A DNA stretch of 57,912 nt from an uncultured Alphaproteobacteria bacterium (GTDB lineage: Bacteria; Pseudomonadota; Alphaproteobacteria; Rs-D84): NCBI GenBank assembly GCA_944390185.1, contig CALXPA010000001.1:1-57912 (forward strand). The letters are read 5' to 3'. This document shows positions 54,224 to 57,049 of the stretch, piece by piece. Position 1 is the first letter of the stretch. Each line of letters starts with the position of its first letter. A program made the position numbers and the translations under genes. A model generated the notes under the pieces. The model had not been told where the DNA came from, did not search any database, and was given only the letters and a program-made list of their open reading frames with translations.

Positions 54224-57049
54224 ATGAAAAAATTACCGCTGTATTTTTATTTATTCGCAGTATTTGCGCCATTTGCGTGCGCATGGGGTGCGACTGCATC
54301 ACGCGCAATCCCCAGTTCTGTGTCGTCATCTGATACCACGGGCGTGTCGTCCCGGGGCGCCACGTCGACCCCTGGGCGCGCGGTCGCCAGTCGTACAACC
54401 ACGACCACCGCGGCCAGAAATATTGCATCTGCGACGACTGGTGCGGCCACGACATCATCATCTGGGGGTGCGGTTACGGCGCGTACGGCGGGTGCGACTG
54501 CGACTGGGGCATCGCGTACGGCGACAGATGCGGCCGGCACGGTTCGTGTTGGTTCGCGTGTTGTTGCGACGGATGCGGGTGCATCGTCATCGCGTGGAAC
54601 ATCGGCGGTTCGCACTGGGGGGACGGTATCGCGTTCGGCGGGTGCGGTTACGACATCGACGGCGCGTGACAGTCTGGATGCGGCGGTCAATACTGTTGGT
54701 CGCAATGCCCGGGTCCAGGCGGCCAGCATAAACAACAACCCAACAATACGTCGCGCGGGGTTAAGTCTGCGTCCATCCACGGCCGAGGTTGGCGGTCGCG
54801 CAACAATTGGCGGCACAGATATCCAGACTGGATCAAACATGTCCGACGAAATCAGTTCGGTATCGGCCCGGGCCAGCACTACATCCGGGACCCAGATTTC
54901 GACCGAAACGATTGCCGCCGCGCGCGAACGTCTGGAACTGACGGCAGAGTTAAATAATTCATGCCAACAGCAATATAATGATTGCATGGACCAATTTTGT
55001 GCGGTCGTAGACACTAATCAACAGCGTTGTTCATGTTCTGCGAACTTGTCGGACTATGCGGACGTAGAACGCGCGGTCACAGACGCAAACGCCCAATTGA
55101 ACGAGGTTGCCCAACGTATCCGCTATGTCGGCCTTAGCGAGGAAGAAATAGACGCCATCATGTCCGCGACCGAGGCAGAAGAGGCACTGACCGGCCGTGT
55201 CGACACGACCGAAACGCGCAATCTGCTGACCGAGATAGAAGATTTAATACTGGACCCGACGACCAGTTCGTCATACACGTCCAGCAATTCGACATTTGGC
55301 CTGAATTTAGATTTGGATTTGGACTTTACATCAACGAACACAGATTTATTCAGTCTGGACTTTTTAAACCCAACCAGCAGCAGTTTGTCGAACCTGCGCG
55401 GGACCCAGCTGTATAATGCCGCGCGAAATCGGTGCAGCACAATATTGGACGAGTGCGAAGCCGCCGGTGCCAACATAGACCAAATAACCGCGAACTATGA
55501 CCTGGCGATTGATCGCGACTGTATCGCGTACGAACAGGGATTAAGCAAGATGAACGACACACTGCGTTCAAATGTTCGCAGTGCGACGCTGATGCTGCAA
55601 CAGGCGCGTCTGGCGGTGATGCAGAATCAGAACACATATGATGCCAAGGGATGTATTGCGGCGCTGGACGAATGTATGCGCGATGACATGGTGTGCGGCG
55701 ACAATTATACCAAGTGTCTGGACCCGACCAAGCGCTATATCGACGAAAATGGCGACGTGGTCCTGGGTGAAAATATAACGCATATCATCCGTTTTATGGA
55801 TGGATACAACAACGCGCGGATTAATCAAGACTTTCTGCGTGCGGCGTATACAATGCCGATGACGTATGAAAAATGTTCGGCGGTTACCGATCCTGATGAT
55901 GCGTCGTCGGTTGGTAACAACGGCGCGTGTGTTGCTGGTTATCTGCTGAAAAAAATCGGAACCGGGCAAGAGGTAACGGACGAAGGCCTGTGCCGTGCAG
56001 TACTGGACAAGTGCCAAACATATACCTATGATGACAACGGTAACTATTTACCATACAACGATGTCGTTGTGAATTATATCCAGCGCGCGATGGTGAATAT
56101 CCAGGCGGCCCAGCGCCAGATAGTATCAGACTATGCGTCGAATTGTGTGTTGGATATCGCGAATTGCTATAACCAACAGGTGACCCAGGTGAATTCCTGG
56201 TCGTCCAGCGCCAGCGTGAACAGCGTGTATAACGTGATGCGTGGTGCCTGTCGTAATGTAGCGTTAACATGTGCGTACGCGGTATTCCAAAATGACCCTG
56301 AACTATGCGGCAGCAACAACAACACTTGTCTAGAAAACATCTCTGCTATGTTCTATCAATCCTTACTCTGCCCAGACAACTCTGTCTATGACCCTAATGC
56401 CCCTGATAACGCTTCTACCGCCGCCGGTTACGTTAACGGTAAATGCAAATGTATCGATGGTTTTACCCCAGCTAATGGACAATGTCTCGAACAATGCCAA
56501 GAAGTCGGTCAAATCAGAAATGCCTCCGGGGTCTGCCAATGCGATACTGCTAATGGGTGGATCCTCTCAGGCGATGATTGTGTGTGTAATTCCGCTATGG
56601 CATGGCAGGCATCCGAAGATGGCCTCTCTTGTGTCAAAAATTGCAGCCTGTTTAATAGGAAGAAAGAGGCGTGCGAAAACGCAGGGTGTTTTTATTCTAC
56701 TTTGGGTGGCATTTGTAGAGGAGAACTAGCTTCTGTCGAGGACCCCCTAAAGTGTTCGGCCACAGATAAAGACACATGCGAAGACCTGGTTGGTTGTAGT
56801 TGGAATGAAGAACAGGACAGATGTGAAGAGGGTCGAGTCGCGACAATTTGTTCGAAGTATGATAACGAAACCGCGTGCCTCGCCGCCGATTGCAGTTGGA
56901 CGGGCGACGAGTGTAGAGTGAACGCGGCAGTTGGCGGAGGGGAGCAAGTGCTTAACTGCAGCATATACTCTCAACCCATGTGCGAAATGATGACTGGTTG
57001 CAGGTGGAATGGCACGACATGCGTAACGTCCAGCGTTATAGTACAATAA
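54224..57049 (+). CDS. Giant Cys-rich secreted protein B (941 aa) with EGF/PSI-like C-terminal repeats
   Basis: Signal peptide, then about 230 aa of Ala/Thr/Ser/Gly/Arg low complexity, C-x6-C modules including CIAALDECMRDDMVCGDNYTKC, an EGF_2-like CKCIDGFTPANGQC, and four C-x7,8-C-x4,5-C-x-W-x6,7-C repeats. Confidence 0.7.
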   Translation: MKKLPLYFYLFAVFAPFACAWGATASRAIPSSVSSSDTTGVSSRGATSTPGRAVASRTTTTTAARNIASATTGAATTSSSGGAVTARTAGATATGASRTATDAAGTVRVGSRVVATDAGASSSRGTSAVRTGGTVSRSAGAVTTSTARDSLDAAVNTVGRNARVQAASINNNPTIRRAGLSLRPSTAEVGGRATIGGTDIQTGSNMSDEISSVSARASTTSGTQISTETIAAARERLELTAELNNSCQQQYNDCMDQFCAVVDTNQQRCSCSANLSDYADVERAVTDANAQLNEVAQRIRYVGLSEEEIDAIMSATEAEEALTGRVDTTETRNLLTEIEDLILDPTTSSSYTSSNSTFGLNLDLDLDFTSTNTDLFSLDFLNPTSSSLSNLRGTQLYNAARNRCSTILDECEAAGANIDQITANYDLAIDRDCIAYEQGLSKMNDTLRSNVRSATLMLQQARLAVMQNQNTYDAKGCIAALDECMRDDMVCGDNYTKCLDPTKRYIDENGDVVLGENITHIIRFMDGYNNARINQDFLRAAYTMPMTYEKCSAVTDPDDASSVGNNGACVAGYLLKKIGTGQEVTDEGLCRAVLDKCQTYTYDDNGNYLPYNDVVVNYIQRAMVNIQAAQRQIVSDYASNCVLDIANCYNQQVTQVNSWSSSASVNSVYNVMRGACRNVALTCAYAVFQNDPELCGSNNNTCLENISAMFYQSLLCPDNSVYDPNAPDNASTAAGYVNGKCKCIDGFTPANGQCLEQCQEVGQIRNASGVCQCDTANGWILSGDDCVCNSAMAWQASEDGLSCVKNCSLFNRKKEACENAGCFYSTLGGICRGELASVEDPLKCSATDKDTCEDLVGCSWNEEQDRCEEGRVATICSKYDNETACLAADCSWTGDECRVNAAVGGGEQVLNCSIYSQPMCEMMTGCRWNGTTCVTSSVIVQ

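Follow-up and report, generated by a model that had tools for sequence, protein, structure and literature searches.

We analyzed a window of 57,912 nucleotides (contig CALXPA010000001.1, positions 1 to 57,912 of the forward strand, assembly GCA_944390185.1) from an uncultured alphaproteobacterium of the order Rs-D84 and, within it, the gene of a cysteine-rich protein, here called protein B, whose C-terminal tail joins a series of C-x-C units to four small four-cysteine modules. With moderate confidence, we read this tail as a disulfide-stiffened stalk that would bear an exposed, fast-diversifying tip. The modules keep their cysteine and tryptophan scaffold while their surfaces differ between strains, and it is this combination of a fixed scaffold and fast-changing surfaces that leads us to see them as the exposed distal tip. 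The tail is a known sort of small disulfide module in a new form, found in an unusual organism and with a striking rate contrast. A first-pass annotation of the same DNA had described eukaryote-like EGF-type and plexin-semaphorin-integrin (PSI)-type cysteine repeats at 56444-57022. The peptides that it quoted are exact in the plus-strand translation and lie in frame in the 941-amino-acid open reading frame (ORF) at 54224-57049, and for the four-cysteine part, it named the right neighborhood. Its description is partly supported: judged from sequence and models, the tail appears to combine a DUF5874-like stalk with an unannotated module nearest to the C-terminal domain of the variant surface glycoproteins (VSGs).

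Four-cysteine modules and the C-x-C stalk

The four modules (R1 to R4, within residues 807-941) (Table 1) span 22 to 25 residues each and have the spacing C-x7-9-C-x4-5-C-x-[WY]-x4-6-C. That there are four cysteine repeats was correctly noticed in the first-pass annotation, but the formula given there, with six or seven residues between the tryptophan and the last cysteine, fits only R2. At least three units of that strict pattern were obtained in 1 of 20,000 composition-preserving shuffles of the tail, and 63 module instances, taken from the window, its relatives, and the phmmer matches, could be aligned in register, with four invariant cysteines and a mostly conserved tryptophan. Given the rarity in shuffles and the in-register recurrence in relatives and in unrelated proteins, the repeats go beyond chance. 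In the AlphaFold (AF2) model of the tail (232 residues, based on an alignment of 63 sequences, with a mean predicted local distance difference test score, or pLDDT, of 85.2), each module forms a short helix followed by a two-stranded hairpin. When R2 was folded alone with the module alignment, the model (pLDDT 76) had a helix at positions 12-17 and strands at 21-24 and 29-32.

The assignment of this module rests on the agreement among four independent match lists and not on any single score. Searched against all chain sequences of the Protein Data Bank (PDB), the 63-module profile had five matches, all of them C-terminal parts of Trypanosoma brucei VSGs (best, 5m4t, E 0.0048). After the prokinetoplastid protein and the unplaced P0031 had been left out of the profile, all six matches were again VSGs (best E 0.016), and the module profiles align C...C...GC-x-W...C onto the VSG chains 5m4t, 6elc, 7p5d, and 6z8g (HMMER). 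In Pfam, the top family for residues 800-941 was Trypan_glycop_C (PF10659), with 14.8 bits (E 0.037), below the cut-off of 21.4 bits, in a match that spans residues 876-940 and profile positions 1-89 of 104. Along similar lines, Foldseek with a single module ranked the C-terminal domain of VSG M1.1 (5m4t) first (27 columns, root mean square deviation [rmsd] of 1.1 Å, template modeling [TM] score of 0.60, E 1.3), and the remaining rows were mostly (9/17) semaphorins and plexins. With VIA-align, only 13 of 48,161 chains reached a Z value of 2 for the single module: two VSG C-terminal domains, eight PSI regions, and three others. The top matches were 2jwg (Z 3.6, rmsd 2.8, 36 aligned) and 5m4t (Z 3.1, rmsd 2.2, 36 aligned), accompanied by the PSI regions of Sema2b (Z 2.9, rmsd 3.1, 35 aligned), plexin A2 (2.9 and 2.7), and Sema4D (2.4) and, at Z 2.0-2.2, those of plexin A4, RON, MET, plexin C1, and integrin beta3. 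These Z values are low because the single-module model has only 36 residues. Together, the sequence profiles and predicted structures suggest that the module is of the structural kind of the VSG C-terminal and PSI domains, closest to VSG, while it falls in neither Pfam family by threshold or cysteine count.

Other searches with these residues gave little. The Pfam PSI family (PF01437, cut-off of 23.1 bits) had no match to the window's protein at E ≤ 10, and related tails matched it weakly (16.9 and 12.7 bits). The ESM Atlas feature search returned no usable match for residues 800-941, and phmmer with the 193-amino-acid stretch encoded by 56444-57022 had no match among PDB sequences at E ≤ 10. 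With the whole 232-residue tail model, the best Foldseek row had an E value of 0.06, among generic EGF-array, TNFR, and fiber rows, and VIA-align covered tail residues 1-119 only, with a top Z of 2.8. Protein B ends in ...CVTSSVIVQ, without a hydrophobic glycosylphosphatidylinositol (GPI) signal. In the literature, no paper was found that connects the VSG C-terminal domain to plexin or PSI, nor any that mentions DUF5874.

The stalk that precedes the modules (residues 716-806) consists of short strand pairs throughout in the AF2 model (pLDDT 89-95), and its cysteines follow the pattern C716-x24-C741-x-C743-x10-C754-x3-C758-x12-C771-x-C773-x12-C786-x-C788-x14-C803-x3-C807. The signature C-x-C-x2-[GP]-[FYW]-x4,8-C, reported in the first-pass annotation together with further CxC units, matches protein B once, at CKCIDGFTPANGQC (residues 741-754), and is followed, as described there, by CQCDTANGW (residues 771-779) and CVCNS (residues 786-790). 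It was kept in 59 of 65 ortholog tails and was never found outside the tails in those proteins; C741, C743, and C754 are invariant in both ortholog alignments (positions 32, 34, and 45 of the second), and the signature arose in 149 of 20,000 composition-preserving shuffles of the tail. In view of its conservation, the signature, too, goes beyond chance. All orthologs have the CxC stalk, with a variable number of units.

An EGF-like domain has six cysteines within ca. 30 to 40 residues, with disulfides 1-3, 2-4, and 5-6. No such six-cysteine unit can be drawn around C741 (C702-x13-C716-x24-C741-x-C743-x10-C754), where only the C4-x-C5...C6 part of the EGF cysteine pattern is present. EGF-type families were absent at E ≤ 1 from the Pfam searches with the whole protein and with the 193-amino-acid stretch, and none was found in NCBIfam. 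The sole Pfam family touched in these searches was DUF5874 (PF19202), at residues 769-814, with 19.8 bits (E 0.001), below the 27.1-bit cut-off. Structural comparison with VIA-align gave weak alignments of residues 710-757 to EGF-like domains (Z 2.0-2.8): for residues 1-48 of the tail model, that of SRK (5gyy) had a Z of 2.8 (rmsd 2.1, 37 aligned), and those of Pfs25 and NELL1/2 had Z values of 2.0-2.3. Other weak rows (Z 2.0-2.8) were HVEM (TNFR), the EphA2 cysteine-rich domains, and the netrin LE repeats. With Foldseek, the tail model had nothing below E 0.05. The nearest ESM Atlas shapes carry DUF5874 or EGF families, with a TM of only 0.24-0.29, and their clusters come from fungi, giant viruses, arthropods, phages, and bacteria. 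Three bacterial phmmer matches (P0026-P0028) have tandem C-x-C-D-x2-N-H-W units; all three proteins pass the DUF5874 cut-off (29.4-36.6 bits), and one of them passes that of cEGF too. "EGF-like" is therefore a fair term for the hairpin unit only, there being no complete EGF domain and no model-based membership. The assignment to EGF and PSI in the first-pass annotation fails on cysteine counts and on the absence of any significant Pfam, NCBIfam, or PDB-sequence match, and it may survive at the level of the predicted fold, which appears related to PSI regions for the modules and, at the Z values above, to EGF-like domains for the stalk.

Substitution rates, codon use, and spread of the module

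We measured the ratio of nonsynonymous to synonymous substitution rates (dN/dS) between the window and two close relatives. Against L081 (95.9% nucleotide identity), dN/dS was 0.04 in the core (residues 161-715), 0.13 in the CxC units, and 1.37 in the modules, where there were 24 nonsynonymous versus 5 synonymous changes. Against L082 (92.6% nucleotide identity), the values were 0.03, 0.03, and 0.75, respectively, the core value covering residues 619-715 only since the 3' ORF of L082 starts there. The core of protein B is under strong purifying selection. In the modules, dS was also raised, to 0.30-0.35 versus 0.15-0.19 (0.35 versus 0.15-0.17 in the L082 comparison). In L082, the gene is split into two ORFs (3-1712 and 1826-2797); a stop follows residue 569, and a net ca. 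30 nucleotides are missing, which points to either a broken allele or an assembly error.

Synonymous codon use also set the tail apart. The last 226 codons (56369-57046) had z values of −9.4 to −9.8, while those of 19 other genes of the window ranged from −3.4 to +2.2. Arginine was encoded by AGA or AGG (AGR) in 6 of 7 tail codons, compared to 0 of 23 core codons, and the tail overuses CTC and GCT. The tails of other species share the AGR bias, the shift starts already in the CxC units, and both the GC content of the tail and that at its third codon positions (GC3) are ordinary. Given that the shift is common to the vertically inherited CxC units and to the tails of relatives, and that GC is ordinary, we tentatively attribute it to rapid amino acid turnover, and a recent foreign origin of the tail was rejected on the same grounds, although the shift itself is real. 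For a eukaryote-to-bacterium transfer, which the first-pass annotation had suggested testing by phylogeny, there was no evidence: the GC of the tail is ordinary, the modules are too short for such a test, and the source may equally well, or more probably, be bacterial.

The module itself is rare. A phmmer search of the 193-amino-acid stretch against 1.84 billion proteins (representatives) had only 10 matches, one of which (P0025, a repetitive HCHCTSLQQW protein) was set aside as a low-complexity artifact. Searched against a word-indexed subset of proteins, a two-module profile turned up two prokinetoplastid proteins, three proteins from bacteria or metagenomes, and a close relative, and nothing else. 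Both prokinetoplastid proteins, P0029 from Apiculatamorpha spiralis and P0042 from strain PhM-4 (both organisms described in PMC7859406), are large proteins from EukProt transcriptomes of free-living prokinetoplastids, where the transcripts could stem from the predator or the prey cell. P0029 has ca. 32 modules as defined by a regular expression and shares the string GCRWNGTTC with R4. On the bacterial side, P0043 (L085:10001-15385) is a lipoprotein of 1,794 amino acids on a 42-kb environmental contig, in which at least 23 tandem modules come after a helical N-terminal part rich in Ala and Gly and before beta-rich domains at the C terminus. Of two smaller carriers, one lies on a contig of an NCBI genome assembly and the other has a lipoprotein-type start; P0044 has six or seven modules. 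The module is therefore rare and, as the bacterial carriers show, not confined to eukaryotes. "Eukaryote-like," as the first-pass annotation put it, is half true, since the nearest look-alikes are VSG and PSI, while the four-cysteine module occurs in bacterial lipoproteins and CxC units of the DUF5874 type occur in bacteria, fungi, and giant viruses.

Of 301 genomes of the order Rs-D84, only the window's own and one more had strong two-module matches, and two or three further genomes had weaker matches on different cysteine-rich proteins. In L090 (G219:C12), L091 (G261:C8), and L093 (G031:C2), modules stand at the ends of unrelated cysteine-rich proteins, one of these carriers being an ORF of ca. 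1,200 amino acids that runs off the contig end. This distribution suggests that the module moves between secreted proteins of this clade. Among the orthologs of protein B, four-cysteine modules were present only in the window, in its near-identical relatives L081, L082, and L083, and in L001. In the core tree, the carriers (the window, L081, and L001) form one small clade, which makes a single gain the simplest account.

Protein B, its relatives, and its gene neighborhood

The gene is predicted to encode a protein with 48 cysteines after the signal peptide, 26 of them in the last 226 residues. A cysteine in the signal peptide is not conserved in the ortholog alignment, so there is no lipobox. 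The N-terminal region has a GC content of 0.61-0.65, versus ca. 0.49 (54290-54850). It opens with an SRxIP motif that is kept in nearly all orthologs and is followed by a conserved block (...NTVGR...RRAGL.LRPSTAEVGGRA...). The core had no match in Pfam, NCBIfam, PDB sequences, or the ESM Atlas; a likeness to complement factor H was discarded, as the whole-family profile gave only chance-level rows against the PDB. After the invariant FYQSLLCP motif, ortholog tails range from 21 to 232 residues (230 in the closest relative) and are built of C-x-C-x2-G-[YF]-x5-7-C units alternating with C-x10-12-C units. In the relative L035, a complete genome, the tail is almost absent.

Table 1. Features of protein B and its gene in the window
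Feature	Residues	Position	Strand	Basis or remark
Protein B gene	941 amino acids plus stop	54224..57049	+	ORF list, translation
Signal peptide	ca. 1-22	54224..54289	+	MKK, hydrophobic run, A-x-A-type end; sequence and ortholog alignment
Ser/Thr/Arg-rich N-terminal region	ca. 23-160	54290..54703	+	Poorly conserved; alignment, composition profile
Conserved core	161-715	54704..56368	+	Recurring C-x6-C pairs, invariant alignment columns including many Cys
Stalk of CxC beta-hairpin units	716-806	56369..56641	+	Cysteine map, AF2 model
EGF_2-type signature CKCIDGFTPANGQC	741-754 (C741-C754)	56444..56485	+	Pattern match, ortholog conservation
Module R1	C807-C831	56642..56716	+	Tyr replaces Trp; pLDDT ca. 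91, helix then hairpin
Module R2	C844-C867	56753..56824	+	The one folded alone
Module R3	C876-C897	56849..56914	+	Within sub-threshold Trypan_glycop_C match with R4
Module R4	C912-C933	56957..57022	+	Ends in GCRWNGTTC

Relatives of protein B were found at 302 places among the ca. 185,000 species genomes scanned. The listed titles were uncultured gut Alphaproteobacteria or Candidatus Enterousia, with a single bin labeled Bacteroides fragilis as the sole exception. The first-pass annotation had associated such modules with host-interaction proteins of host-associated species; the window's organism is indeed a gut Candidatus Enterousia, but host interaction itself has no support in these data. 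Genomes of Enterousia and the order Rs-D84 are mostly smaller than 1 Mb and lack the tricarboxylic acid (TCA) cycle, respiratory chains, and standard sugar, amino acid, and peptide transporters (PMC12306168). The window's own assembly (823 kb, 89% complete) has one copy of the protein B gene. As part of the same best explanation, and held with the same moderate confidence as our reading of the tail, protein B would belong to the core of the Candidatus Enterousia lineage, whose genomes measure ca. 0.8 to 1 Mb, as a single-copy protein of the envelope or surface. A gene of the DsbA family (66.9 bits) and a secretin gene (56.6 bits) are present in the same genome.

The protein B gene has no conserved neighbor, and its flanking genes differ between species. 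Protein A (50847-54062), of 1,071 amino acids, is cysteine rich and has two C-terminal hydrophobic segments; it was rejected as a conserved operon partner because it adjoins protein B in only 3 of 80 related loci. In other species, different cysteine-rich secreted proteins stand beside protein B, which suggests that such proteins form a large and rapidly changing family in the clade. After the gene, the window continues (57058-57912) as a mosaic of GC-rich palindromic repeats (GTCATCCC..., GTCACCCCGG...) that resemble repetitive extragenic palindromic elements or miniature inverted-repeat transposable elements (REP/MITE). The same repeats recur many times, on both strands, on contigs of close relatives (L082:2800-4140 and 7010-7530; L083:1870-2430 and 3467-3700). 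L083, a single 3.8-kb metagenome contig from another sample, contains a free-standing 3' fragment of the gene (L083:2262-3386, protein P0024) that starts from residue 675 and has no signal peptide. It is 95.8% identical over 355 nucleotides (to residue 793) and then continues into another module array, of four or more units. The reading frame of the fragment opens within a repeat element, and the same repeats lie on both flanks. The fragment may represent a silent cassette or a disrupted allele, or else an assembly chimera. For the window's assembly, a diversity-generating retroelement or silent cassettes were rejected, as there was no second copy of the tail at E ≤ 10.

Explanations of the tail and comparison with known systems

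In the arrangement that we favor, protein B would be exported by a Sec signal peptide and oxidized outside the cytoplasm. DUF5874-like CxC hairpin units, akin to the C-terminal half of an EGF domain, would form a disulfide-stiffened stalk, which only in the window's small clade would be capped by the four modules, as beads joined by short flexible linkers. Each bead, a short helix packed on a beta-hairpin and presumably stapled by two disulfides, would be of the same kind as the subdomains of the VSG C-terminal domain and the N-terminal half of the PSI domain. The tip may meet a changing partner: the surface of a host or partner cell, an antibody, or a phage. The disulfide connectivity, the surface exposure, and the binding or antigenic function of the tail are inferred.

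Several points weigh against this arrangement. The VSG and PSI matches are all below the usual significance (14.8 versus 21.4 bits in Pfam, E 1.3 in Foldseek, Z of <4), and convergence on a simple scaffold of four cysteines in ca. 25 residues may account for them. A dN/dS ratio close to 1 is equally compatible with diversifying selection and with an inert spacer under relaxed constraint. Protein B may stay in the periplasm rather than reach the cell surface; no anchor, sorting signal, or secretion partner was identified for it, and DsbB was not found in the window's genome, of which the assembly is only 89% complete. For the core, conserved and presumably the functional part, no fold or family could be recognized.

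The main rival is an inert spacer, in which the beads and the CxC units would only extend or stiffen the C terminus, with the cysteine and tryptophan scaffold alone under constraint and the differences between strains being neutral drift. The dN/dS ratios of 0.75 to 1.37 are not clearly above 1, tail length is free to vary down to the nearly tailless L035, and the atypical arginine codons in tails across the family would go with rapid, unconstrained turnover. In VSGs, plexins, and integrins, the corresponding domains are mainly spacers or linkers. The VSG C-terminal domain is small, buried, and flexible (PMC9956791). However, the rate jump in protein B is abrupt and confined to the modules, with the adjoining CxC units staying at 0.03-0.13, and the increase in dS, as well as the wholly different array in L083, looks like module exchange and not like slow drift. 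We consider a mere spacer unlikely.

It is more improbable still that the tail was derived from a host or gut protist and imitates EGF or PSI modules to engage host receptors. The nearest characterized relatives of the four-cysteine module are indeed eukaryotic (VSG C-terminal domains and PSI), the highest copy numbers, above 30, occur in prokinetoplastid proteins, the codon usage of the tail is far from that of the genome, and the modules were gained in one small clade. But GC and GC3 are ordinary, the codon shift begins in CxC units that are vertically inherited, and the tails of relatives share the AGR bias. Besides, the module occurs on bacterial lipoproteins encoded on bacterial contigs and on other cysteine-rich proteins of the order, which makes an origin in bacteria as likely or more so. 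Animal EGF and PSI models give no match, and modules of this length are too short to be placed in a tree. Least probable of all, in our judgment, is a programmed variation in which, as in the pilS and vls systems, silent partial copies would recombine with the gene and replace the tip, to give antigenic variation. The L083 fragment, with its different module array between REP/MITE-like repeats, and the presence of the same repeats after the gene in the window would fit such a mechanism, but only a single tail copy is present in the window's assembly, the repeat-rich junctions of L083 could be those of an assembly chimera or a transposon-disrupted allele, and no recombinase or conserved recombination signal turned up, no search having been aimed at either.

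Beyond the stalk-and-tip reading of protein B, we put forward a broader and more speculative proposal, which we regard as possible but doubtful: the four-cysteine unit might be an unrecognized cross-kingdom family, related to the first half of PSI, that includes the VSG C-terminal domain, prokinetoplastid surface proteins, and scattered bacterial lipoproteins, and that in Candidatus Enterousia forms a hypervariable tip, possibly exchanged as cassettes, on a lineage-essential surface protein. Up to now, the C-terminal domain of VSGs has been regarded as peculiar to trypanosomes. If such a family exists, the tip would correspond, in a bacterium, to a variable coat element and would offer a lead to the origin of that domain. 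The presence of the module in free-living prokinetoplastids and bacteria, with a fold shading into PSI, makes this lead testable and also provides an unannotated family for domain databases. The way in which Candidatus Enterousia and its order attach to a partner or host, and live at its expense, is still open, and protein B, as a core, disulfide-rich exported protein whose tip evolves fastest, is an obvious candidate for this interface. The interest of the finding is moderate and would be higher if homology to the VSG C-terminal domain were established or if the protein proved to act where the bacterium meets its host or partner.

We compared the tail with the systems that it resembles. The CxC units are like DUF5874 and the C-terminal half of EGF (cEGF, PF12662; PROSITE EGF_2) in that residues 741-806 repeat C-x-C-x2-3-[GN]-[FWY]-...-C hairpins, but these units have ca. 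16 amino acids and two or three cysteines each, the score is sub-threshold, and there is no complete six-cysteine EGF. The PSI domain (PF01437) has a Cys-x-Trp core on a hairpin after a short helix, like that predicted for the module, and 8 of the 13 chains at Z ≥ 2 are PSI regions. However, a PSI domain has ca. 50 residues and eight cysteines, including CxxC and C-G-W-C, whereas the module has four cysteines in 22 to 25 residues, matches only the first half, and has the C-x-W but not the next cysteine. The bacterial and prokinetoplastid proteins P0029, P0042, P0043, and P0044 carry the same four-cysteine module, aligned in register and with significant scores (phmmer E value of 6.3e-6 from the window's stretch, profile E values of 4e-137 to 2e-19), but as their main body, in ca. 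6 to more than 30 copies (six or seven in P0044, 23 in P0043, and ca. 32 in P0029); they have a transmembrane or lipoprotein anchor, lack the Enterousia core, and are uncharacterized. The closest likeness is to the VSG C-terminal domain (PF10659; 2jwg, 5m4t). There, too, a four-cysteine subdomain of ca. 25 to 30 residues (C..C..GC-x-W..C, with a short helix plus a hairpin, as predicted for the module) occurs singly or in tandem on flexible linkers, at the C terminus of a large secreted protein whose N-terminal part bears cysteines. In contrast, protein B is encoded by a bacterium, scores below the Pfam cut-off, has no GPI signal, and has four copies where VSGs have one or two. Furthermore, the beads are the most variable part of protein B, while the C-terminal domain is the more conserved, buried part of a VSG (PMC9956791).

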